DNA from: Naegleria gruberi
Lineage: Eukaryota
Reading direction: 5' to 3' (one strand)
Assembly: GCA_000004985.1 (NCBI GenBank)
Contig: GG738890.1
Length of the DNA: 64,000 nt
Under the pieces are notes generated by a model. That model saw only the letters and a list, made by a program, of their open reading frames with translations, was not told where the DNA came from and ran no database searches. Position 1 is the first letter of the stretch. Each line of letters begins with the position of its first letter. Shown piece by piece: positions 29,430-58,543 of this stretch. The position numbers were made by a program, and so were the translations under genes.

Positions 29430-29514
29430 TGCTCATAGAGGGGGTCGAACCCTCGGCCATCTGCTAACCTCATTTTCTCATAAGACAAATGCTCTACCAC
29501 TGAGCTATATGAGC
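29430..29514 (-). tRNA. tRNA-Ile (anticodon UAU) with ~13-nt intron
   Basis: The reverse complement folds as a cloverleaf. The acceptor stem is GCTCATA/TATGAGC. The D-arm is GCTC-AGTGGTA-GAGC. The anticodon stem is TTTGT/GCAGA (2 G-U pairs) with loop CTTATG... interrupted at 37/38. The T-arm is GAGGG-TTCGACC-CCCTC. Confidence 0.6.
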
Positions 29515-44287: not shown

Positions 44288-45932
44288 TTACTTCAAAATA
44301 GGAATTGCCTTCAAAATTCCAAGTGGACTTGTGTATTGTCTCAACTTGTTACTGTCCTTAATATGTTTCACACCATTCACGACACACTCATTGGCATGAG
44401 CAATGTTATATTCAATGCAGTCCAATAATTCATCTTGGTGTTCAACGAGATTGGCAAAATCTTGGAATAATTGATTGAGTTGAACCATGGAAAAGTATAA
44501 TTGTTTGATATCTTCATTACTTTCCTTTGCAAGTTGATATTCCACATCCAAAGTTGCTTCCTGAGATTGAGTCAAGGCATATTTAGTGTCACCCTTCAAT
44601 AATTCTTGGAATTGCAATTTATCTTCCACAATCATGGTCTCAATCTCTTGAGGAGTTAGGTCAGCATATGGTGATGCTGCATTTTTACCATTTCCTTTAG
44701 CATAAATGTCAAAGAGACGTTTCACACGACCAATCTTGCTTTGTTTGCATTCTTGTTGTACAGATTGGAATTTATCCATTTCTTGCATGAAGAGTTGAAT
44801 GAGTTTTTGCTGTTGTTGAGATCTGAGACGAGTGATGGCATTCTCTTCTTTCATGGCTTCTTTAATTGAGGAAGTTTCGATGGAAATTTCCTTAATGGCC
44901 TCTTGAATTGTAGATGAAAGTTTAGAAGTAACATCAACTTGTTCTCTCATTTTACTGAATTTCCATTTTAAAAATTATTCGAAATTATTTGAAACCTACC
45001 CTGAAAGTTCATCCAAAACTTTAGAATTTGATTCAGTTTGTACCTTATTAGAAAGACTTTCCAATTTGTTAATTTCATTCACCAGATCCACAGTAATCTT
45101 TCTTTCAATTTCATCCTAAATTTCAGATATTTCATTAATTTTCAAATAGTTCCATTTGTTTCATTTAATTTTTCAAAATTCTCAACTAGTACTTACTGCT
45201 TGTTTTTTAAATCTATTCAAATGTTCTTCAATAGTTTCTTCCGTTGGACCACTATTACTATTTGAAGATGCACTTTTAGATTTTTCAGAACTTGAGCTAG
45301 TGGATGACAAACTTCCAGAACTTGACGAAGATTTCATATCAGAAGCACCAAGAGAAACATTCACAAGTATTTTACCATTTCTAACTTGTTCCAAATCCAA
45401 CCAGAATGGTCCCTTTTCGGCAAGTTTCGTAAAATCTGCAATGGTTTTCTCGACCTTTCCCATTGCAACATTCATTAACAGTTTATTCTTGTCAAAAACT
45501 GCAAATTTCAAAGTATCACTTGGTTTGACTCTGTAATAATATTAAATTAATTGCATTATTATTTTATGGATTCGAATAATGATGAAATTATAAACTTACT
45601 GATCGAAAGTAAATTCTTCATTCCATTCCGGATCCAAAGTTTTGTATTGTACTTTAGTCTTTTGTTCATTAGATTTGGAAAATGGCAACTTGATGAGAGA
45701 ATCATTCGGATTGATGGTTCTTTTTAAAAATTATTATTATTCGAAACTTGATGATATTCGAAACTCACATTACTACAAACTAATAGATCATCACAAATTG
45801 TTAAAAATTATAATAATAATTATTTAATATAATTCACATCACACATAAAATACCTACTGGATCACTAGAACCATTCAAATCTTTGCACTGAAGTTGTGAT
45901 CCTTTCACAACCGAAACTTGAAGTTTTGACAT
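44288..45932 (-). CDS. C2 domain - syntaxin (Habc + SNARE) fusion gene, at least 5 exons (approx. 45858-45932, ~45600-45688, ~45196-45530, ~45002-45117, 44288-~44955)
   Basis: Exon 1 MSKLQVSVVKGSQLQCKDLNGSSDP and the downstream ...KTKVQYKTLDPEWNEEFTF, FAVFDKNKLLMNVAMGKVE form a C2 beta-sandwich. The last exon carries a Qa-SNARE motif (QLNQLFQDFANLVEHQDELLDCIEYNIAHANECVVNGVKHIKDS). All junctions use GTAAGT/GTAGGT...YAG signals, and I find the frames continuous across them. Confidence 0.5.
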
Positions 45933-46141
45933 TTTTTTTAATCTATTTTTGATATGAAATCACTGTTTCCAATCACGTTTCAGAGTTTATTTACAACAAT
46001 ACAAATGAAAAACATAAATTAGCAATTCACGTGAATTAAATGTCTCAATTGACTAAAAAATCCAATCAATTTCATCCCATCAGGTATTTACCAGGATACC
46101 CAACAACAAATTGGCATGGTTAATATTATGTTTGATATAAG

Positions 46142-46834
46142 CTATGAATCAACTTCAATTGTAAAGATATCATGTTCAGAGTTATAACAAAGTGTGTGCA
46201 ACATTAAATCTCCAATTTCATGACCCCAAATTCCATACTTTCCATTGGTAGAACATCTATTAATTAAAGAACAATTTGGATCTTGATCACGCATTGGTTG
46301 AGCAGTGATGGATGAAGAACCATCTTCCTCTTCATATATTTCCTTATATCCCCTACAAATCAAGGCAACCAATTGTCTCTGCGTGAAACCATTCACAGGA
46401 CGTTCAAAAGTCTTCCGAGCAGGAATTGATAATGGATAATCATATTCAATAGTAATAGATTGTCTATTCGGAATCAAATCTGTGGTATCTTCATATCTTT
46501 CCAATTCATCTTCATAACATTGAACGGAAACATAGACGTTTTGTTCTTCCATATCATCAGACTTGACCATGTCGGGCTTGACCATGTCGAGGATGTTTGG
46601 AGAGGCTAAATAGGCTGGTGTTGTTGCTGATGGAGTTTCTTGTTTCTGCTCTGCTTCGGAGAAAATTTGATGTTGAGAAAAGAAGCGTGATTGTTGATAA
46701 ATATTATTCATTACTTTCACTTGTTGGGTCAAACAAGGTTCAATGTGTGTGGCACCGACACCTCTAAAGGCAGATACTTGTTGTTTTTGAGAGGAGAGAG
46801 CGGCACGACGAATGAGAGCAAGACTTTTTTTCAT
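46142..46834 (-). CDS. hypothetical protein (possible N-terminal mitochondrial presequence)
   Basis: 230-aa ORF. The N-terminus MKKSLALIRRAALSS is Arg-rich and amphipathic. No recognised domain. Confidence 0.3.
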   Translation of the reverse strand: MKKSLALIRRAALSSQKQQVSAFRGVGATHIEPCLTQQVKVMNNIYQQSRFFSQHQIFSEAEQKQETPSATTPAYLASPNILDMVKPDMVKSDDMEEQNVYVSVQCYEDELERYEDTTDLIPNRQSITIEYDYPLSIPARKTFERPVNGFTQRQLVALICRGYKEIYEEEDGSSSITAQPMRDQDPNCSLINRCSTNGKYGIWGHEIGDLMLHTLCYNSEHDIFTIEVDS

Positions 46835-46994
46835 TTTTTTTGATTGAATTTCTCAAAAAAGATTGAATTTTACAATGAATTTGATTGAACGTTTTGAAAA
46901 ATTGTAAATTTGGAAAATTACAAATGAGATTATTACAATAATTCGAACACATTCGAAAAAGAATCACGTTTGAACAAATTCAAATTTAAAAAAA

Positions 46995-47978
46995 ATGATT
47001 AAAAATTCGATCAGACAATTCATAAAAGGTGCATCTTTAAAGGCGCATCATCATCAGCTTTATTTTAATACTTTTCATTATACGAAAGTAAACTATTCTT
47101 CTTACACCCTTCCAGAGATACAAAAATCCATCGAACAAATCAACCAACAAATTTTGAGCACCGAAAAATCCTATCAACTTCATCCGAACATGAAGAATAG
47201 ACTATTCTTTGAATTATCTGAAAATTACTGCGAAAGAGCTTCCTTTCTTTTTTTACTAAAAGATTACAAAAGTGGAACGAACGATCTCACACAAGCAATT
47301 TCATTCAATCCAAGAAATTATAAAGCTTGGCTTTTGAAAGCTCGATATAACTTTGAAAAAGTTGGAGATTTACAAAAAGCTTTGGAAGATTACAACAAGG
47401 TACTTGAATTGCATCCACAACATGTTTTTGCACTCATTGGTCGATGTGATATTTATTTGGAATGGAATGAGTTGGATAAATTGTTGAATGATACTTCTAC
47501 TATTATTGATTTAGTGAAATTGAAAGAAAATCAAAGATTGGAACAAGATGAGAGTGGAGGATTGAAATATGATTCCATTAACATGTTGATCAATTCGTAT
47601 AATAAGAGATTTATTGCATTTCTTAGAAAGGGAGAGTATGAAGTAGCTTTGAATGAATTAAATGAATTAATTAAGGAAATTCCAATGGAGAAAACAGAAA
47701 AATTAATTCAGATGTATTTATTGAAAGGAGTTTTGTATCGTGATCAATTAGCTCAGCCAGATAAGGCACTGGAGGAGTGCAGTAAGATAATTAAGATTGA
47801 TCCGTCTCATGTAGATTCCTTGATTATTAGAGCTTCTCTTTATATGGAAAAGAAAGATTATCAAAGAGCATTGGAAGATTATGAGAAACTACTTGAATTG
47901 GAGCCAACCTCTAAGAATGCCAATTATAGAAACATCATTGAGTCAATCAAAAAGTTGGAAAAAAACAAGTCAAACTAA
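46995..47978 (+). CDS. TPR-repeat protein
   Basis: Multiple 34-aa repeats fit the TPR pattern (W-LG-Y-A-F-A-P), e.g. AWLLKARYNFEKVGDLQKALEDYNKVLELHPQHV and ALEECSKIIKIDPSHV. Confidence 0.6.
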   Translation: MIKNSIRQFIKGASLKAHHHQLYFNTFHYTKVNYSSYTLPEIQKSIEQINQQILSTEKSYQLHPNMKNRLFFELSENYCERASFLFLLKDYKSGTNDLTQAISFNPRNYKAWLLKARYNFEKVGDLQKALEDYNKVLELHPQHVFALIGRCDIYLEWNELDKLLNDTSTIIDLVKLKENQRLEQDESGGLKYDSINMLINSYNKRFIAFLRKGEYEVALNELNELIKEIPMEKTEKLIQMYLLKGVLYRDQLAQPDKALEECSKIIKIDPSHVDSLIIRASLYMEKKDYQRALEDYEKLLELEPTSKNANYRNIIESIKKLEKNKSN

Positions 47979-48009
47979 TTTGAATATATTGACACAGTTG
48001 TTGGTCAAT

Positions 48010-49629
48010 TTATTCTAAAGTGGAATCTTCTCCTTGTAAAGGAGAGTAATCTTCGAGATTGATAATGTCTGTTGCAATTTTCTCAGTAAAGTATCTATCA
48101 TGTGAAGTAGCAATGATAATTCCAGGAAAATTCATTAATGCTTCCTCGATTACTTCTAAACTTGGAAAGTCAATATGATTAGTCAATTCATCCAATACCA
48201 AAATTGAGCATTTTTGCATGATTATTTTACATAGCTGTACCTTTCTTCTACATCCAATACTCAACGATTTCAATGGTGAATTCAAATCATGCCAAGTATA
48301 AACTCCAAGATTACACAATTCAGTAATAACCTTTTGTTTTGTTGCTTGAATACTCGAATCTTCCATCAACAATTCAATTGCAGTCTTGTCGAGTGGCATA
48401 TTTTCCTGTTCCTGATCTAAATAACCAATCTTGGCATGCTTACTAATATTTACACTTCCTTCATCGGATTCTGTCAATCCCATAATTATGTTCATTAAGG
48501 TTGTCTTTCCAGAACCATTAGGTCCTTGAATGATTAATCGATCTCCACTAACCAAAGTGAAGGAAAGATTTTGGAAGAGAGGTTTTTGGGCAAAGGATTT
48601 GGACAAGTCCGATAATTCAATACTTAGAGAGGATGCAATAGAACTTTCATCAAATTCGAACGAAATTTTGTTTCGTTCTTGAATTAAATCTGTTCTATTC
48701 TCGAGCAAGTGTTCTTGCTTTCTCGTGATTTGATTAAATGCTTTGGAGGTACCCTTGTGAACTCGTTCCTCTTGATTGTTATAACTGAGTTTATCCCTAT
48801 TCTTTGGATCTCTCAATTTTCTAGCTTTCATGGAAGATGCCATCTGAATTGACTTTTGTTTCAGGTTTTTCAATTCCTTATCTTGAAGTTCACGTTCTTG
48901 CATGGCTCGTTGACGTTTCTTTTCCTCTTGAGCAAGATAATTTTCGTATCCTCCCCTGAAGTGAACAAACTTTTTGGTGTGAGGAGAAAGTTCTGAAATT
49001 CTATTAGAAACTGAATTAATCAATGTTCTGTCGTGAGTCACCATCACAACTGCTCCATCATAATCCTTCAAGAAATGTTCCAACCATTCAATACCTTGCA
49101 CATCAAGGTGATTAGTTGGTTCATCCAATAATAAAATGTCAGGTTTCACAATACTTAGAGCACACAGAATTGACTTGGTTTTCTCTCCACCACTCAAACT
49201 CTCAAATGGTTGTTCCAATAAATCATTATTCAATCCAATAAGTTTCGTCTGCTGATAAATCTCATCTCCAATTATCGAATTCAACTCATTATACCACTCC
49301 TCAGAAAGTGGTTGCAAAGGTTGTTCCAAAAACTGTTGAATATCAGCATCAGGAAAGAATTTCAACATGGTAATAATTGTCGACTCATCACCCTTAGTAA
49401 TTTCTTCAAAATGTTGAGGCAAGAAACCAATCTTTCCCTCAATCTCCACCATTCCAGTATATTCAAAGTCAATCATACCAAATTGAGATGTTCTATTATG
49501 ATTATCATCATCTTTTTGATCATGATCATCATTATTTAAATAAGCACTATTCATCAAACGGAGGAATGTAGTTTTGCCACATCCATTCTCGCCCACAAGT
49601 GTTACCTTCGCACAATATAGGATCATCAA
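48010..49629 (-). CDS. ABC-F family ATPase (tandem NBDs, no TMD)
   Basis: Two Walker A motifs (GENGCGKTT; GPNGSGKTT). Two ABC signatures (LSGGEKTKS; LSIGCRRKV). Two Walker B motifs (LLLDEPTNHLD; LVLDELTNHID). A charged linker lies between the NBDs. Confidence 0.75.
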   Translation of the reverse strand: MMILYCAKVTLVGENGCGKTTFLRLMNSAYLNNDDHDQKDDDNHNRTSQFGMIDFEYTGMVEIEGKIGFLPQHFEEITKGDESTIITMLKFFPDADIQQFLEQPLQPLSEEWYNELNSIIGDEIYQQTKLIGLNNDLLEQPFESLSGGEKTKSILCALSIVKPDILLLDEPTNHLDVQGIEWLEHFLKDYDGAVVMVTHDRTLINSVSNRISELSPHTKKFVHFRGGYENYLAQEEKKRQRAMQERELQDKELKNLKQKSIQMASSMKARKLRDPKNRDKLSYNNQEERVHKGTSKAFNQITRKQEHLLENRTDLIQERNKISFEFDESSIASSLSIELSDLSKSFAQKPLFQNLSFTLVSGDRLIIQGPNGSGKTTLMNIIMGLTESDEGSVNISKHAKIGYLDQEQENMPLDKTAIELLMEDSSIQATKQKVITELCNLGVYTWHDLNSPLKSLSIGCRRKVQLCKIIMQKCSILVLDELTNHIDFPSLEVIEEALMNFPGIIIATSHDRYFTEKIATDIINLEDYSPLQGEDSTLE

Positions 49630-49910
49630 TAATAAGTGTTTCTTGTTTTTCTTTTTTATATGGAGTTGACTCTATCATTAGAAAAACACAAATGGGAGAT
49701 GATCATTCTATTAGAGTGTTTAATGGTGATATTAAATATTTTGATGTCACTAGAAGAATTAAAGAATCTAATATAAAGTACGACTATTTAAAAGGGAATT
49801 CTTGGTTTGATAATAGATTAATAATAGATTACAAAAGTCATAACACTAGAAGTTTCTTGTTTGTAAGAAATTTCACAATCCATTTATTATTCTGTTCACT
49901 AAATAATGAA

Positions 49911-51247
49911 TTAAATATCTTCTTGAGCTAATACACTGGAAGCATAATTTTTTAAGGTCTCTACATACTGTAACTGGTCAACTTCAAACTTATCTCTATC
50001 ATTAGAGAATGTTATTATTTCGATATTCTTCTCTTCATTAAATAGGATCTTCTTTAATTTCATACAAGCTTTCCAGTAATGATACTCAACTAGAAAGATT
50101 TGGTAGTTCTTGTAAAGATAATCAAGATCAGAATCTTTAAAAATAATCTTCAGCTCTTTTCTGAAATTGGCTGGTGTGATTATTTTAAAATCAGCAAACA
50201 GCTCGAGCTTTCTATACTTTCCTTTAATTTCATTAATATCCTTTTCACCAACATAAATGTCAATAATGAGTGTTTTTTGTCTTCCATTTCCCCTCTTAAT
50301 TACAAAGTCTGGTGTTGAATTGTTGAGAAGACATTTAATATCGTGTTCTCGAGTAATAATGTTCTCTGTAATAAAAACTTCTTTCTTTTCTATCAACATA
50401 TCTTGTATCATGTAATACAAATAATCATGTACCATTTCATTATTGTCTTCCATATAGCCTAAAGCCTTTAGTCTTTGTTCGATATATGTAAAGGCTTGTT
50501 TAGTATTGGATACGGCATACTTATGCTCTATTAAATCCTTGAAGTGAGCATTCTTCTTCCATTCTGATGGAATATGAAATTTTTTTCTAAAAACCTGAAG
50601 TAATGACGAAGTGTTTTGGCTGAGACAAAACTTAAGACATCTCCATCGGATAGTCTATCACCAACTTCGTAGTTACGTCTAATCTCCTTGATAGTAGTTA
50701 GACCCCAATGTTTACCAGTGAAATCCTCATCAGCGGATTCCTCATCAGGGTCTTCATCAAGTTGATTAGCTTGTTGCAGAACAGGAGGAACAGCTTCGAG
50801 ATGCTTTATTCTCTCACCCAAAGAAGTGATGGCGTTGAGAATAGCATCAAGGTTCTTTTCAGAACCAGCTTGGTTGTTATCCAAGGTTTTGGATGTTGGG
50901 TCAACCACAGAGGGGAGTGAAGCTGAGCTACCATTGTCAGTTACTGGGATGTAACCAGACTTGTAGGTAGAAGTTGAGGATTTGCTTGCTGAAACTCTTT
51001 GACGAATGTTGGAAATATTCGCCTTGCTTGGTGTTTGAACCATTTCAATATACTTAATTTTTTTGAGCATAAAATTATTTATCAACTCAATTTTATTGTT
51101 TACAATTTGTCGAAATACTAACGTTGCATCGTTCCTCGCAACTCTACATTTGTCACTACTAATCATTCCCTGTTGTTCAAATGGTACGTCAACTCCTTGT
51201 TGTGTCATACAAACTTCATCAATTATTGCTTGTTCAGACATCGTCAC
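49911..51247 (-). CDS. orphan gene split over two frames (ORFs 50531-51247 and 49911-50453); frameshift or tiny intron
   Basis: The downstream ORF's frame stays open upstream of its first ATG and overlaps the end of the upstream ORF, as with the eIF4A case. The acidic linker is DEDPDEESADEDF. The C-terminal region PDFVIKRGNGRQKTLIIDIYVGEK has no confident family match. Confidence 0.3.
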
Positions 51248-52895
51248 TTTGGTGCTTGAAGTTTTTTTTTTATTGTTCTTTAAAAAATTAAAATTATTGT
51301 GATTTTGAACATGTTACATTGCAAATTAATAAAAACAAGATTGAGAACAAGTAATCCTCATTATAGAGATGGTACTAAGTGACAGTGAAACGGGGGACGG
51401 ATGAGACGGAGAACACTCAGTTTCTTACTAAAGACGGGAGAAGAGCATCCGCTTAATACTGATGACGGTAAACCAAAATGGAAAATGCACAACCTTAGTA
51501 ACACCGATAAATTGAATGATACATTTAATAAAGTTAAGAATATGAAAAAATATTTCAACATCTAGTACGTGATGTACTTTGATGATTCTTCGAGTGGTTT
51601 CACATCCGTAAGCTGCCAAACGTTCACATCATCATCTCAACATCATCTAAATAGTAGTAATAGTAGTAATTTTTATTATTGGACTTTCATCATAAAATAG
51701 TAAATCAATTTTTGGATTATAATTTTTCAAGTTGGTAAACCATCATCGGAACACTCACCAACCGTCATCATAGATATATTTAATATAGTAGAATAGTATG
51801 GGTGATTTCTATGTCTTGGAAATATCTTTATTTTGGTGAAACTCAACATTTTACTAAAATCATCCTCACTGTTGAATCCATTGGAAAGATTGGAAAACTA
51901 TTAATGTAGGATTGTTGGAAATGGTCAATAGTAGCATAGTAAATTTTGAACAGTGGATTTTCATCAAGTTTTAATAGGGATAGGTACATGTGAATTTTAA
52001 AAAGTACATGTACCATTACTCAACATGTACTTGACCAACTTGGAAATCTTCTAGTACTATTGTTTAAATCACTAATAAACACCATATTTAATATCAGTTT
52101 TTCATTATTTTGTGTTTTGGCTTGGAGAGTGATTTCTAGCCAAACCTTTTATCATTCACTCCTTCAAGAGTGATTCAAAAATTATCAAACTCATTGTGAA
52201 CATTACACAATGATATTAAAATAATAAAATTCTTGTTTTTTCTTTTTATTTCATTTCTTTCACCTTAAATCGAACAATTAACCTTATTTCCTTAAACATC
52301 ATTAAGATCAAATTGAATTTCAAAGATAACCAACTTTTTCAACATCTCAAATCCTACACGTTATAGGGATCACACTCATATCAATTAATCCTATTTTTCA
52401 TTTTCAGTAAAAAATCAAAATTTGAACTTTCCAAAGTTTACTATTTACCTGAATTGTTTGAGAAGGAAACTTCTCATAAAAAGAAGGGTAGTTACCCAAC
52501 AGTGTTTTAATCAACTAAGTCAAATTATTTCATGTCATTCTTAAATTTGAGACAGAAAGAGTGAAATCTTTGATTTTAGTGAATATTCCACAACAGAGGT
52601 GTTGTGTTTGTTACCGTCACACCGTCAATTAGTATCTCCTCCTAATTATACTAATGGGTATTAAAGCTCAGGGACTGTTTCACCTTTAAGGTGATTCAGC
52701 CTTGAGACCTGCTTTAATGGATATAAATCTTTATTAGCAGGTCCCGAGATTAATAAATATGGCTCTTATAAAAAACTTATCAATAGTATTAGTAAAGATA
52801 AGAAAAAAATTAGGAGATGCGAATAGGAGGCATAAACTAAATTGAAATTAAAATAAAAAAGATATCATTCGATGAACATTTCAATATGAATGTAA

Positions 52896-52968
52896 GCAGC
52901 GATAGATCAGTTGGTTAGATCGTAAGCCTAACACGCTTAAGGTCGCGGGTTCAAGCCCCGCTCGCTGT
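52896..52968 (+). tRNA. tRNA-Val (anticodon AAC)
   Basis: Acceptor stem GCAGCGA/TCGCTGT (G1-U72). D-arm GATC-AGTTGGTTA-GATC. Anticodon stem TAAGC/GCTTA with loop CTAACAC. T-arm GCGGG-TTCAAGC-CCCGC. Internal A and B boxes are present. Confidence 0.85.
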
Positions 52969-53151
52969 ATCCATTTTATTTTCTAATTATTTTTGACGTA
53001 ACCAATTCCAAAGAATTCAACCAACAATTGGACTGCAGTTTCGTCCAATATTTGAATTGTATAACTGAAAGGGTTAATTAGAATTGGTCCCCTTGGTGAT
53101 TATTTCATGTCTTGTGCTCTTGCTTTTTATTGAATTTCTAATTAGAAAGTA

Positions 53152-54693
53152 CTATTCTTTAGCATTTTTCATTCTCATTGATTGCATTGCTTGACTAATC
53201 TCCTTATTGGAAGATTTCAATCTTTCGAATAAATCAGACATGTCCAATAAACAGTGATTTTCCAATTTTTCAAAGAAATTCAAATCCAAACTTTCACTTT
53301 CTTCGATAAGTTTCGAATATTCTACATTCTTCTGTTGAATATAAGGAATATTCAATTCGAAAGGTGAACCAATCGTTAAATAATTCTCAACAATCTTTCT
53401 CGCATGATTTTTCACAACTTGTTGGTCAACTGAACGTTTCTTGAAAATTTCCTTAAATTTCTGAATATCTTTCCAAGACGAAACACTTTCCACACAGAAA
53501 GAACGTCTCGCAAAATCCAAAACAATCTCAAAATATTTTCTATTCAGTAAAATTAATTCAACTTCTGATTTTTCTTCAACTTGAGTTTCGGTTTGATTCG
53601 TTTTCTTTGAATTTAAATATTGAGAAACTGCTCCATACACAGCAGGTCCAAACGTATAAATCAAAACTTCACACAATGAATAAACTGTCAGGGTATATCC
53701 AAAAGGTAGAAAATAATCAACCAATGATGAAATGACATCGATTCCTGTCATTACTCCAAATGAAATAATTCCAACAAGTTGAATCACCAAAAGTATGACA
53801 GTATCTCTCTTGATATTCCATGTATCCTTATCTGAGATCATTGCAAGAATAATGGAAACAAATTCCAATATGAAAAACATTACAAAAACACATGCCAAAA
53901 GGATTACAAAATTTGTGCTCAATGCACAGCCATGTGAAAAGTTAAAGAACCCAGTGTCTGGAATCATGATTTTGGGTGATGAGGGATTGGATTGATACAT
54001 GGTTTCTTCCACAGCTCCCAAAATTATCCATAATAAGATGACGCCAAATGTCAATAGAAAATAACAAATCATCATGAATTTGTAACTTGCCAAGAATGTG
54101 AATATTTTCATTTTCAACTTCTTTTTCCTATCCAATAACATGCTTTCTCCATCCTCCTGTTTGATCGATGTTTGAATTGTTTCCTCCTTCATGGTACTTG
54201 TCAACTCAATTTGACTTGTATTTTGCATGTCGTGCATGGATGACGAAATTTCACCACTACTCAAAGATTTGACATTAAAACTCTTCAACAGATTCAACCT
54301 ATACAATGCAAACAATCGAATACATCTAAAACTGGTCGGCATTGTAAACATTGCAGGGATTAGAATAAAAACTAGAGTAAACAATCCACATGGAAAAATC
54401 TGTCGTCCAATGGCCAACCGAAACAACAATAATCCTGTCAAAGTACAATGAGCACACACTGAAAAAACCAAATAGAATGGGTCTCTTGCCTTTACATAAC
54501 CAGATTTTCTATAAATTATTGTCAAAATTATTCCACTCAACCCGAAAATAAACATGGCAGCAATGAACATTGATGAAGTAATTGTGGTGGAAACAAAGTC
54601 AGGACATAGACCATATTTTTCGGTGGAATTGTTGGAAAGAAGTAGTGGATGACAAGTGGAATTAGTAGAGGAGGTGATGTTTTGTGTGGTCAT
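53152..54693 (-). CDS. seven-transmembrane receptor-like protein with C-terminal RGS domain (7TM-RGS)
   Basis: The N-terminal ~330 aa hold about 7 hydrophobic helices. The C-terminal 120 aa match the RGS-domain consensus (FEIVLDFARRSFCVESVSSWKDIQKFKE...ARKIVENYLTIGSPFELNIP). Confidence 0.65.
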   Translation of the reverse strand: MTTQNITSSTNSTCHPLLLSNNSTEKYGLCPDFVSTTITSSMFIAAMFIFGLSGIILTIIYRKSGYVKARDPFYLVFSVCAHCTLTGLLLFRLAIGRQIFPCGLFTLVFILIPAMFTMPTSFRCIRLFALYRLNLLKSFNVKSLSSGEISSSMHDMQNTSQIELTSTMKEETIQTSIKQEDGESMLLDRKKKLKMKIFTFLASYKFMMICYFLLTFGVILLWIILGAVEETMYQSNPSSPKIMIPDTGFFNFSHGCALSTNFVILLACVFVMFFILEFVSIILAMISDKDTWNIKRDTVILLVIQLVGIISFGVMTGIDVISSLVDYFLPFGYTLTVYSLCEVLIYTFGPAVYGAVSQYLNSKKTNQTETQVEEKSEVELILLNRKYFEIVLDFARRSFCVESVSSWKDIQKFKEIFKKRSVDQQVVKNHARKIVENYLTIGSPFELNIPYIQQKNVEYSKLIEESESLDLNFFEKLENHCLLDMSDLFERLKSSNKEISQAMQSMRMKNAKE

Positions 54694-55028
54694 TCTTTTT
54701 TATTAGAAAGTGGGAGATGGTCAACCGGTGCAGAAATGAAATGGTGGGAGCACATGAACAATGTACTACGAAGCTCTGCAATAGTATGACTAAACTTACA
54801 GAATACTAACTAATAAACCAGAGCTCTTCGTTATGCAACAGTTGATGGATGACACTTTGGGAAGAGTTAGTACATTGAAGGTTACAAGATAATATTGCTG
54901 ACAGCTAATCACAGCAATTAGTTTGCTCACTTAATCTTTTTGAAGTTCAAATTAGATTTTACAATGAATATTGGTTGCTTATTTTTGATTGATTTAGTTC
55001 TTGTAAAGAATCACGATTTGAATCTTTT

Positions 55029-55502
55029 TTGGGTTTTTTCACGTTTCATTTTGCTTTTTTTCAGGCATTTGCTGTTGTGTTTCTTGAAAATAAATATAAA
55101 AAAATGTTTTCAGAAACAATTCAAACTCAATTCTACTCTTTCTTGATTGGTATTCTTTGTTTTGCTATGAGTAGTGTAGCTTCATCAGCACTCTCGAAAG
55201 GCAAAAAGGAAAGTGTTTCCCACCATAATAATTCTCATACGAAACAAGACGATTCAGATTTATGGAATTTTACTGTCTCCCAAAGAAAAAATGAATTGAG
55301 GGAAGAACGTAGAGTGGTCCATAATCAACGTTCAAACAATTATGAAACAGTTCAATCTTTGGAAAAACAATTATCCGAAACTGAAGTTGCCCTTTTTATT
55401 GCTAGAGAACAATTGAGTGCTGCAAACAAGGAAAAGGAAGCGTTGGAAGAACAAGTTATTATTCAAGCTTGTCATATTCAAGACTTGGAGAACAAATTTT
55501 GA
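55029..55502 (+). CDS. small membrane-anchored coiled-coil protein, hypothetical
   Basis: 157-aa ORF with an N-terminal hydrophobic segment and a C-terminal heptad-repeat region (QLSETEVALFIAREQLSAANKEKEALEEQV). Weak support. Confidence 0.3.
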   Translation: MGFFTFHFAFFQAFAVVFLENKYKKMFSETIQTQFYSFLIGILCFAMSSVASSALSKGKKESVSHHNNSHTKQDDSDLWNFTVSQRKNELREERRVVHNQRSNNYETVQSLEKQLSETEVALFIAREQLSAANKEKEALEEQVIIQACHIQDLENKF

Positions 55503-55607
55503 AGAAACTAGATATCAAAACAGTGAGCAATAAAATTAAGTACAAAAGAATATTTACGAGCTAGTCTTTTTATAATGATATTAAGGAACATTTCATTTTG
55601 AATGTAA

Positions 55608-55680
55608 GCAGCGATAGATCAGTTGGTTAGATCGTAAGCCTAACACGCTTAAGGTCGCGGGTTCAAGCCCCGCTCGCTGT
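55608..55680 (+). tRNA. tRNA-Val (anticodon AAC), second copy identical to 52896-52968
   Basis: 73/73 nt identical to the first copy. It shares ~35 nt of 5' flank and ~22 nt of 3' flank with it. Confidence 0.85.
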
Positions 55681-55763
55681 ATCCATTTTACATTTCAATT
55701 TTATTGTCCAAGAATTTATTCTAATCTAATGTTCGTAACTTTACAATTTTTTTATTCACAAAT

Positions 55764-58543
55764 CTACAAATCAGCTTGGAATGATAAATCTTCTTCTAAT
55801 GGTTGTTCGACAAAGGCATCATCCTCTCCCATGTCTTCTCCAACTATATCTTCCATAGATAAGTTGAGAGCATCAGAGACAATACCCTTTGACAATGCCA
55901 TTCCCATAGTATTGAGGGAATTGCTATTTTGCCTTACTTCTATCTTTAAGAGCTTGATTGCTTCCTCTTGTTTTCTGTTGGCATCCCTTAATTGAGTGAT
56001 TAACTTTTCCTTTGCAGCATCCTCTGCTTCAAATTGTTGAAGGAGTACCTTGAGATCGTGAATTTCTTGTTGTAATGTCTTTAATTCACAAATCTTCTTC
56101 CAGTACTTGTCAGATCGTTCCTTGGCATCCTTGTACTTGTTCATGTATTTGAGAAGCACTTGGTGAGTTTGTTCCAATTCACTAACTCTTGCTTGTTCAT
56201 CCTTTCTGCTTTGACGTAAATCATTTTCCAATTGGAGAATGTACTTGTTGGTAAACTTAATGTCTTCCTTTCTCACCACTGTTTGAATGATTGTATTTCC
56301 AGATGATTTACCTGTTGAGGAAGGTGGAACTGAAGAAGAGGATCCATTTTCAACCTTATAAGCACTTCCACCAGCCACCGATCCTGCAGCACTGCCTTGA
56401 GTTGTTGGCGTTGACATTATAGTTGATGAGACCACTACTTGTGCCTTTCTTGCCTCATCCAATTCCTTACTGAGCTTTTCAATCTGAAGCTTGAGTTGCT
56501 CATTTTCTTCTCTAAACACTGTGTTGTCATTTTCTGCTTTTTCAAAGCTTTGTTTGAGATCAATATTGCTTTCTGTCAATTTCAAAACTTCCACCTTCAA
56601 TTGATCAGTAGTACCGGCCTTGTCCATCAGCTCTTTCTTTGTATTTTCAATGATGGTAATATGTTCTTGAGCATTATGCAATTTAAGCTTTAACTCTTCA
56701 ATGACAATATCATCTTCCTTTTTGACCTTCTCACAAGCTCTCTTCAATTTGGTTATTCTTGCTTTGTGGGCAGAGTTGAAGAGTTTTGTTGGAGCAATAC
56801 CCTTAACATCAGTTCCACGACCTGGAGAGAAAACAGCCTCTGGATAAACTTGACCCAGTTCAGAGGTATTTTGATTAATACCAAACATTATATCAATCCA
56901 TTTGTGTAAATTTTGGGAAACGTGTTCACACTCCAAGGCATCTCTAGCTTTTTGGATGAAATCTTTAGCACTCTCGGCCCAAGGTGGAAGGCTAACGTCA
57001 CCAGTTCCTCCCAGAGGAAGACTCTTAAAATTAATGAGAACCAATCCTTCACCACTGTACAAATCTGGAATTGTTTCTTTTGGATCACTTCCAGACACTA
57101 TACCCTCCCAACATTTCTCAAGAGACATGAAAAGCTTATTGGTATCAATGAATTTGCCGTCATTAAAATGGAACATGATATCAGGATAACATCTCACCAA
57201 ATAGGAGAGGATATTTTCATAAGTCATGCAGAAATTGTCACATACTGGCCTTTCCAACTTTTTCCTTGCGGCAGAGTTGATGCATCCAATATGTTTGGAC
57301 AAGTCTCTGAATGTGGCAGGGTTTTCAAGATCTAACTTTTCTGATTTCAAATCAGCAAAAATCCAAGGGAAGATTGGATACAAGTAGACATCATTCAATG
57401 TACGCCCAGCGTATCTGTTAAGATTTTGGATATATTCGAAAGTGGAGAGATAACCTGTCACCCATTGTTCTTGATCTCTTTTCACTGATTCATTAATATC
57501 GATCATGCTGTTTTGTCCATAGCTGATCTTTTCAAATGTTGCATCTCTTTCCTCTTCCTTATCAAAGATGAAGAGTGCAGAGGATTCATTATGTAAATGC
57601 ATGACAAATGCTTTGGATCCATTCAAATATTCTGTTTTTACAAGTGCCAATACAGATGATGGGGAAAGTTTTAAAATGTGAGGCTCACCACCAAAACAAA
57701 AGTTTGGTTGGAAGTACACTCTTTTTGAGGAAATTGCAAATTTACCTCTCAACTTTTCAAATGAAGAAATCATGAGAGCTGAGGTAGTGTAAGAAACACT
57801 TTCATCCTCAGTCAGCCATCCAGTATTGAATGGTGTTCTCTTTTCAATCATTTCAACCATGTCTGCAAGTTGTTGATTTCTTGTTTTGTCATCCTTTGTA
57901 AGAATTACTGATTGCATTCTTTCTAACAAATCGTAAACCTTTTGGAAGTTTTCTTTTTGAATACCTAATGTAATTTTTGTAATCTGTGTGATTAATTGAT
58001 GATGAGTTTAAGGATTTTAAAATCATATAAACCAGTAAGAATAGCCATGAACATCATTCCAAAAATAATTGAAAACATACCTTCATCTTACTGTGATCCT
58101 TGCTATCAATTAAACAAACTCTTGCAGTTGAAATCGTCACTGTGGAACATTTCTTTGAAAATCCCTTTGCAGCTGCCTTCTTAATGTTCGAAATATCCTT
58201 AGTCAGAATACGATAAACTGGAAGTGTAAAATCCTCAGGACAGAAGGTTAATGATTTTGTGGCGAGAACAAGATGACCTCTTGGGTGATCATCTTCCTTT
58301 GTATTGACTTGAATATATGTTGAATGACTTGGGAGAATTTCCAATATCTCTTCATCACTCTCCAAGTACATGGATGAAAATCGAACACATGCCGGTTTGG
58401 CCTTAAAGAAATCTATAGGTGATGATTTGTCAGAGTTGTCATTGTTATTATTGTCGTTTGCAGAGTTGTTATTGTAGATGTGAGTGAACAATATAGAATT
58501 TTTTATTATTAGACCATCATAACGGCTAGTACTTACTCAACAT
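55764..58543 (-). CDS. compact PH-BEACH domain protein with C-terminal coiled coil, 3 exons (58537-58543, ~58081-58412, 55764-57983)
   Basis: BEACH core WVTGYLSTFEYIQNLNRYAGRTLNDVYLYPIFPWIFADLKSEKLDLENPATFRDLSKHIG. Upstream PH-like segment HLVLATKSLTFCPED. The first exon is 7 nt (ATGTTGA) followed by GTAAGTAC. Introns are ~124 and ~97 nt, and their phases agree with the track frames. The C-terminus is heptad-repeat coiled coil, with no WD40. Confidence 0.7.

Follow-up and report, generated by a model that had tools for sequence, protein, structure and literature searches.

Local pairs of parallel tRNA genes of the same isoacceptor have been surveyed across eukaryotes (Bermudez-Santana et al., 2010; PMC2888827), and in Naegleria gruberi, whose 41-Mb genome holds about 924 tDNAs (PMC2888827, supplement 2), eight same-isotype parallel pairs less than 1 kb apart were observed where 1.02 are expected at random (PMC2888827). 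The two tRNA-Val(AAC) genes described here lie in a window of N. gruberi nuclear DNA (the whole stretch analysed, 64 kb), and they are like the homogeneous parallel pairs of that survey (PMC2888827) in that they have the same isoacceptor identity, the same orientation and an identical mature sequence, and are close together; unlike those pairs, they are 2.7 kb apart, outside the 1-kb cluster definition used there. The locus also differs from a tandem array, since the copies are separated by two protein-coding genes and the duplication covers only ~105-120 bp.

Upstream elements that modulate tRNA genes include TATA-like boxes near position -30 in plants and S. pombe, as well as 5'-flank elements of Drosophila tRNA-Val genes. 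The block that the two N. gruberi genes have in common resembles such elements in being short, conserved and immediately 5' of the gene, and it could likewise influence the choice of start site or the efficiency of Pol III; unlike them, it occupies -22 to -1 rather than ~-30, is not TATA-like, and was seen at two loci only; the single further tRNA gene available lacks it. Transfer RNA genes are also the targets of retrotransposons (TRE and DGLT-A in Dictyostelium, Ty3 in yeast), and the integrative elements of bacterial and archaeal genomic islands have tRNA-derived direct repeats at their ends. As with tRNA-derived SINEs and tRNA-targeting retrotransposons, we find a repeated tRNA-related sequence in a variable genome region. 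However, in contrast to a SINE, the unit contains a complete cloverleaf followed 5-9 nt on by a terminator, with no tRNA-unrelated body or tail, and in contrast to retroelements, it comes without a target-site duplication and without retroelement ORFs. The resemblance to islands lies in the tRNA-containing direct repeats on either side of a gene-bearing segment; here, however, both repeats are full genes with 5' flanks (instead of a full gene and a 3' fragment), there is no integrase at the pair, and the genome is eukaryotic.

Two identical tRNA-Val(AAC) genes and the extent of their shared flanks

Copy A (52896-52969) and copy B (55608-55681), both on the + strand and spaced by 2712 bp, were identified by ARAGORN, which assigns anticodon AAC and isotype Val to both, and by Rfam RF00005, with a score of 66.9 bits for each copy versus a gathering score of 29. 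Each gene is 74 nt long, including the discriminator A that had been left off in the initial annotation (73 nt), and the sequences of the two copies do not differ. A canonical cloverleaf was recovered in the MFE fold, and inspection of the sequence revealed an A-box-like TAGATCAGTTGG and a B-box GGTTCAAGCCC, along with a TTTT terminator at +5 to +8 past the discriminator in both copies. ARAGORN, RF00005 and sequence identity concur with the earlier description of two matching tRNA-Val genes in the same orientation 2.7 kb apart, and the pair probably represents paralogous nuclear genes that are functional.

The similarity extends beyond the tRNA on both sides. A repeat search aligned 52874-52993 with 55586-55705 (120 nt, 93% ungapped, spacing 2712), and blastn returned a firm match of 105 bp (52874-52978 versus 55586-55690; 98.1%, two mismatches). 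The 5' flank in common is 22 nt long, reads GAACATTTCAATATGAATGTAA in copy A (52874-52895, + strand) and GAACATTTCATTTTGAATGTAA in copy B (55586-55607, + strand), matches at 20/22 positions and is presumed, in copy A, to be the start-site and 5'-leader region. Anchored extension upstream of -22 gave a score of 0 and no similarity above background; of the ~35 nt of 5' flank previously proposed, only these 22 nt rise above background, and the 'GATAT.A..' part reaching to about -35 does not. On the 3' side, the trailer TCCATTTTA, composed of TCCA, the TTTT terminator and A and hence containing the Pol III T-run, is the same at 9/9 positions (52970-52978 in copy A; 55682-55690 in copy B, from blastn and anchored extension; both + strand), and its anchored-extension score was reached by 1 of 2000 random windows. 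The next ~15 nt, a T-rich stretch at 52979-52993 that anchored extension pairs with 55691-55705 (both + strand), match at only ~9/15 positions, a marginal similarity with a p of ~0.02 versus random windows that is probably generous for T-rich terminator regions. The 3' flank had been put at ~22 nt; the 9/9 trailer holds up, and what follows it is marginal. Moreover, the first two bases of that flank as originally written, 'TATCCATTTTA', belong to the tRNA. The flank identity is in register with the tRNA gene and has an abrupt edge at -22 on the 5' side, while on the 3' side the perfectly matching trailer gives way to decay, the similarity ending at about +9 to +24. The shared unit is ~105 bp when counted firmly and ~120 bp at most, rather than the ~130 bp initially estimated.

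Such flanks might in principle be AT-rich background beside two independently placed tRNA-Val genes, a caveat that the initial annotation had attached to its own observation. The genome has a GC content of 33%, and the outer parts of the flanks as first drawn do fall to background. The core from -22 to +9 does not: the 20/22 match abuts both genes in register and is far above background, a scan of all 64 kb for the block at <=3 mismatches returns these two sites alone (0.05 expected), and its 5' anchored-extension score was reached by 0 of 2000 random windows. For this core the chance reading is already refuted, and we regard its overall probability as negligible.

The locus in N. gruberi and its relatives

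The interval between the copies holds an intronless ORF (53152-54693, - strand) for a multi-pass membrane protein of 513 aa with a C-terminal RGS domain (Pfam, residues 381-485) and six strong hydrophobic segments plus one weaker one. The ORF matches an N. gruberi predicted protein at 100% identity; the gene is convergent with copy A, its 3' end lying 183 bp away. That the tRNA pair brackets an RGS gene, as had been noted before, is confirmed by the Pfam match, with the addition of a second small ORF in the same interval (55104-55502, + strand; 132 aa), whose predicted product has a coiled coil and, at its N terminus, a hydrophobic segment, and whose stop codon precedes copy B by 105 bp. This ORF is an orphan: the sole match in the homologue search was the N. 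gruberi predicted protein itself, with no related-strain contig, and no Pfam family scored above the cut-off. On the far side of copy B, convergent with it and separated from it by 82 bp, is the BEACH-domain exon of a FAN-like gene (55764-57929, - strand; Pfam Beach, 2.5e-57), with orthologues at loci L003 and L004.

The FAN/BEACH gene closes a conserved block of synteny with other Naegleria, the Myb-E2-FAN/BEACH gene order being kept at the orthologous loci of N. lovaniensis and of a third Naegleria. Neither of these orthologous loci has a tRNA, an RGS gene or any trace of the unit, and the tRNA/RGS arrangement is therefore specific to the N. gruberi lineage. The difference is not confined to the 2.7-kb segment, as the whole ~10-kb BEACH-to-C2 interval differs in both relatives. 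The N. lovaniensis locus with an RGS homologue (L001) has no tRNA and has different neighbours, and for these reasons it is probably not a positional orthologue. The only contig from a near-identical strain (L002, 98.9%) stops 75 bp before it would reach copy B. Searches of JGI metagenome contigs with the exact 74-nt tRNA and with a degenerate 40-nt core of it gave 0 matches each, and the degenerate core likewise had 0 matches in IMG/VR viral contigs.

Origin of the pair

We consider it reasonably likely that the pair arose as a local duplicate of one short tRNA gene cassette of ~105-120 bp, which would comprise 22 nt of start-site and leader sequence, the 74-nt tRNA and the trailer with its T-run, and which would have been copied at the DNA level, by ectopic copying or repair synthesis, to another intergenic spacer close by. 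At the sequence level, the identical 74-nt tRNAs with canonical cloverleaf, A and B boxes and TTTT speak for common descent of the two copies, as does a flank similarity that is far above chance yet sharply bounded. Sensitive blastn and tblastx of the regions to the left and right of the copies detected no further colinear similarity, the orthologous loci of the relatives carry neither a tRNA nor a remnant of the cassette, and local same-isotype duplicates are already known in the N. gruberi genome (PMC2888827). On the other hand, proximity is weak evidence, because ~3 same-isotype parallel pairs would be expected genome-wide by chance at 2.7 kb (the published random expectation scaled from 1 kb to 2.7 kb), and the movement of a 105-bp unit over 2.7 kb with nothing else copied is a process without a demonstrated mechanism. 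With two copies in view, descent and constraint are inseparable, and flanks common to every Val(AAC) gene would say nothing about local duplication.

In tRNA genes, TFIIIC recognises the internal A and B boxes, and TFIIIB is set on AT-rich upstream DNA. Under the cassette-copy reading, each copy would be an independent and expressed Pol III type-2 unit, in which transcription is predicted to start in or near the -22 to -1 block and to stop at the TTTT at +5 to +8. A34 would be deaminated to inosine, and the tRNA-Val could then read GUU, GUC and GUA. Purifying selection may keep the tRNA bodies identical, while the nearest flanks could still be recognisable either as the youngest shared sequence or as a mildly constrained leader and terminator; the intervening RGS gene and orphan ORF would be bystanders.

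Local copying of a cassette retains one part of the initial suggestion of a recent segmental duplication, namely common descent, and departs from the rest of it, as only ~105-120 bp was copied with nothing colinear beyond. Nor does the duplication appear to be very recent, because the firm flanks differ at 2/31 positions, and at more of them further out, as against the 1.1% by which a metagenomic N. gruberi-like strain diverges from the present one. An older and larger duplication whose flanks have decayed was also considered and was rejected, there being no colinear remnants at the DNA or protein level.

The abrupt edge at -22 and the end of the 105-bp match at TCCATTTTA, exactly the terminator, with marginal, T-rich sequence beyond, could also be explained if one gene were a retrocopy of a Pol III primary transcript, either of the other copy or of a third family member; the -22 to T-run extent is what such an origin, too, would produce. 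However, a leader of 22 nt is long for a pre-tRNA, neither a target-site duplication nor an A-rich tail is present, Pfam finds no reverse-transcriptase gene nearby, and the marginal similarity past the terminator points to copying of DNA, so that we judge an RNA intermediate to be improbable. We attach still less credence to the proposal of the initial annotation that the copies delimit an inserted, RGS-bearing segment, which might have arrived as circular DNA integrating by homologous recombination at a resident tRNA-Val, or by ectopic exchange among dispersed tRNA-Val genes. The A-X-A direct-repeat layout is in keeping with such an event; copy B sits 82 bp past the last gene of the three-species synteny block, with an interval behind it that differs in every species, and in N. 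lovaniensis the nearest homologue of the RGS gene (38% identity) is on another contig among other neighbours. Yet nothing but the RGS gene and the orphan ORF lies in the 2.6-kb interval, with no transposase, integrase or reverse-transcriptase domain detected by Pfam between the copies, and no target-site duplication was found, the longest words common to the outer flanks being AT-rich and 5-6 nt long. Furthermore, the two tRNAs do not delimit the species difference, which spans all ~10 kb from BEACH to C2, and the flanks of the repeats have diverged, so that no recent event is indicated. Insertion of the RGS gene is, in our view, very improbable.

The upstream block and Pol III transcription

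The initial annotation had suggested that the block could be a Pol III upstream promoter element, a role it may or may not have: at -22 to -1 it occupies the expected start-site and leader zone of Pol III rather than the TFIIIB zone at roughly -30. That annotation had also allowed that the block might be common to every tRNA gene. The third tRNA gene of the window, and the sole comparison within it, is a tRNA-Ile(TAT) gene (29430-29514, - strand), which has unrelated sequence upstream in place of the block, and the block has no match anywhere in the 64-kb window beyond those at the two tRNA-Val copies. Because tRNA-Ile(TAT) lacks it, the block does not qualify as a generic promoter element of tRNA genes, a conclusion drawn from this single comparison. 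A Dictyostelium-style external B box was likewise not found within 150 nt downstream at <=2 mismatches, and our literature search on Naegleria returned tDNA counts but no description of tRNA gene flanks or Pol III promoters.

The block is near-palindromic, with an imperfect inverted repeat ACATTTCA-nnn-TGAATGT, and both 5' mismatches between the copies sit in its 3-nt centre (probability ~0.013 in a post-hoc calculation that assumes two changes placed at random among 22 positions). A hairpin in the leader was entertained and dismissed for want of thermodynamic significance: the fold is weak (-2.7 kcal/mol, z ~-1.1), and 26-30 of 200 shuffles fold equally well.

These features bear on a further explanation, that the flanks are a functional element of the isoacceptor family, present on all N. 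gruberi Val(AAC) genes and kept by selection, which could consist of an upstream promoter, start-site or leader element together with the same trailer and terminator. This explanation is compatible with common descent, and the flanks would then be alike whatever the history of the copies. The similarity does peak beside the gene and decay outward on the 3' side, the block covers the zone in which Pol III would be expected to start, and the placement of both mismatches in the centre of the inverted repeat is in keeping with constraint. Conversely, the hairpin is not unusual, the block is missing upstream of tRNA-Ile(TAT), and the abrupt boundary at -22 resembles a breakpoint more than a gradient of conservation. 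We therefore view a selected family element as possible but doubtful.

Taken on its own, the locus, as we read it, adds one more local tRNA gene duplication to an unusually tDNA-rich genome and carries little weight. A broader significance, which strikes us as unlikely, would follow if the cassette from -22 to the T-run were the unit by which N. gruberi tRNA genes multiply, with short self-contained Pol III units spreading via primary transcripts or templated repair, or if the near-palindromic block were an undescribed, family-specific Pol III upstream or start-site element of Heterolobosea. The bounded unit from -22 to the terminator provides a concrete query for tracing the expansion of the tRNA complement in N. 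gruberi, and equally for family-specific upstream elements on Naegleria tRNA genes. Finally, tRNA genes are associated with rearrangement-prone intervals, and the position of copy B, which marks the edge of the conserved synteny block, fits this association.

The tRNA-Val(AAC) pair and its shared flanks

ARAGORN identified three tRNA genes in the 64-kb window: an intron-containing tRNA-Ile(TAT) gene of 85 nt in total on the minus strand (29430-29514), and two tRNA-Val(AAC) genes on the plus strand at 52896-52969 (copy A) and 55608-55681 (copy B). Both Val genes score 66.9 bits with the Rfam tRNA model (gathering score 29), and they are the same at 74 of 74 nt. Scans of metagenome and viral collections for this tRNA sequence gave 0 matches. 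The initial annotation had rightly seen an identical pair in the same orientation but gave its length as 73 nt, omitting the discriminator base. By inspection, each gene carries an A-box-like TAGATCAGTTGG, a B-box GGTTCAAGCCC and a TTTT run 5 nt past the discriminator, and both appear to be normal, intact genes of the Pol III type-2 kind. The first acceptor-stem pair is a G1-U72 wobble rather than G-C (52896/52967 and 55608/55679), as read from GCAGCGA...TCGCTGT followed by the discriminator A.

The two copies make up a single repeat family (52874-52993 versus 55586-55705; 120 nt, 93% ungapped, spacing 2712), in which the firm match by blastn covers 52874-52978 and 55586-55690 (105 bp, 98.1%, two mismatches). 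Each flank was scored apart, in alignments anchored at the tRNA edge, against 2000 windows drawn at random from these 64 kb. The anchored score of 18 for the 5′ flank, reached by 0 of 2000 random windows, comes entirely from positions -22 to -1 (20/22 identical), the extension score past -22 being 0; at three mismatches or fewer, this 22-nt block occurs in the window only at copies A and B (0.05 expected). In the 3′ flank, the copies agree at 9 of 9 positions of the trailer TCCATTTTA, and the ~15 nt past it show marginal similarity (p about 0.02 versus random windows), a value that probably overstates the significance, since Pol III terminators are usually followed by T-rich sequence. The blastn match and the flank tests show that the previously described duplicated unit with shared flanks is real, but its boundaries had to be trimmed: the ‘GATAT.A..’ stretch, which had been taken to extend the 5′ flank to about -35, is background that aligns only with a 4-nt shift.

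The 22-nt block reads as an imperfect inverted repeat (ACATTTCA-nnn-TGAATGT) with both 5′ mismatches between the copies at its centre. As an RNA or DNA hairpin its fold is weak and not thermodynamically significant (-2.7 kcal/mol, z about -1.1), and was equalled by 26-30 of 200 shuffles.

Origin of the pair

The best-supported interpretation is that one short cassette, spanning -22 to the terminator region, gave rise to copies A and B as paralogous tRNA-Val(AAC) genes; the argument for common descent rests on the shared flanks, which the whole Val(AAC) family might also carry. Copying would have been at the DNA level, with a nearby spacer as the target; selection would keep the tRNA body identical, and the nearest flanks may have been kept by recency, by mild constraint on start site, leader or terminator, or by both. 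Against a generic promoter carried by every tRNA gene stands one comparison in the window, in which the upstream region of the tRNA-Ile(TAT) gene proved unrelated; neither flank of that gene shows any relation to those of the Val genes, and no external B box was found within 150 nt downstream of the latter at up to 2 mismatches. The terminator of the tRNA-Ile gene (TTTTT) lies 9 nt downstream of it.

Larger events had also been proposed. A segmental duplication is not borne out, as blastn (word size 7) and tblastx revealed no colinear match beyond the unit when the left-hand neighbourhoods of copies A and B were compared with each other, and likewise the right-hand ones. The view that the tRNA genes mark the ends of an inserted segment fared no better, since no target-site duplications flank either unit or the pair as a whole, and Pfam found no mobility domain between the copies. 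The unit is not SINE-like because it stops at the terminator. A short cassette duplication also fits the genomic background. The 41-Mb N. gruberi genome holds 924 tDNAs (883 genes and 41 pseudogenes; Bermudez-Santana et al., PMC2888827), with 77 adjacent tDNA pairs at <1 kb versus 39 expected and 8 same-isotype parallel pairs versus 1.02 expected (PMC2888827, supplement 2), the latter excess establishing local same-isotype duplicates in this genome. By linear extension of the random expectation to 2.7 kb, we infer that about three same-isotype parallel pairs would occur genome-wide by chance, so that the proximity of copies A and B alone proves little. We regard the tRNA-Val pair as an ordinary feature.

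Genes around the two copies

The RGS gene lies between the copies on the minus strand (53152-54693), its 3′ end 183 bp from copy A; this 513-aa ORF (Pfam RGS at residues 381-485; six strong hydrophobic segments and one weaker) matches an NCBI ‘predicted protein [Naegleria gruberi]’ from a 350-kb scaffold at 100% identity, and the window is accordingly nuclear DNA of N. gruberi. It is followed by a plus-strand orphan ORF of 132 aa (55104-55502), whose sole database relative is N. gruberi's own model. Copy B occupies a 261-bp spacer, bounded on one side by this ORF and on the other by the 3′ end of a FAN-like PH-BEACH gene. The latter appears as two ORFs (PH_FAN, 58054-58491; PH_BEACH/BEACH, 55764-57929), and the gap of about 124 nt (57930-58053, minus strand) is most likely a spliceosomal intron; both parts are fused in one 807-aa protein in the N. 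lovaniensis model.

Left of copy A, ~1.5 kb are without long ORFs: 51300-52860 has no ORF >66 aa on either strand, unusual in a gene-dense window, and could be an intron-rich gene, a decayed gene or a non-coding region. GC content is 31-37% per 2-kb bin across the AT-rich window. Further left are two neighbouring minus-strand ORFs of 180 aa (49911-50453) and 238 aa (50531-51247), inside the N. gruberi-specific interval, without Pfam matches and with exact sequences absent from the protein collection searched; possibly they are lineage-specific genes, possibly what is left of an unrecognised element. A single 35-nt direct match (86%; 50104-50138 versus 54995-55027; TAGTTCTTGTAAAG..AATCA.GAT..GAATCTTT), not in register with the tRNA repeat, links the coding region of the 180-aa ORF to sequence just upstream of the orphan ORF (blastn E-value 1e-5, in a small search space).

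Comparison with related Naegleria

The order Myb, E2 (UQ_con), FAN/BEACH is kept in all relatives' loci, and copy B lies at the edge of this block. BEACH orthologues share 53% identity in N. lovaniensis (L003) and 51% in a third Naegleria (L004 and L005). A C2-domain gene, with its N. gruberi counterpart at 44303-45721, is next in order in both. The BEACH-to-C2 interval spans about 2.2 kb in N. lovaniensis (L003 8275-10507), with one unrelated unknown 444-aa gene, about 2.9 kb in the third species (L004 12138-15000), with a different gene (abhydrolase), and about 10 kb in N. gruberi (45721-55764), with at least six unrelated genes and both tRNA-Val genes. Alongside the Val genes, the RGS gene, the orphan ORF and the two unknown ORFs, the N. 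gruberi interval carries genes for an ABC-F ATPase and a TPR protein and one further ORF. No tRNA and no trace of the unit occur in the relatives' retrieved loci, and by this comparison the tRNA-Val/RGS arrangement is specific to the N. gruberi lineage. As the variable region far exceeds the 2.7 kb between the tRNA genes, the bracketed segment is not singled out as an insertion. The FAN/BEACH-to-C2 interval is a gene-turnover hotspot among the three Naegleria compared.

A further relative of the BEACH protein (99% identical) is encoded on a 3.1-kb ENA metagenome contig (L002) from a near-identical strain, which matches the window at 98.9% nucleotide identity over 3.1 kb and ends 75 bp short of copy B. 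This between-strain divergence of 1.1% is below that of the repeat flanks (2/31 firm positions, more further out), so the duplication is not very recent. The contig derives from an environmental metagenome with an N. gruberi-like organism (ERZ929261; run ERR1078381, project PRJEB11402), an assembly that is a possible source for strain-level comparison of the locus.
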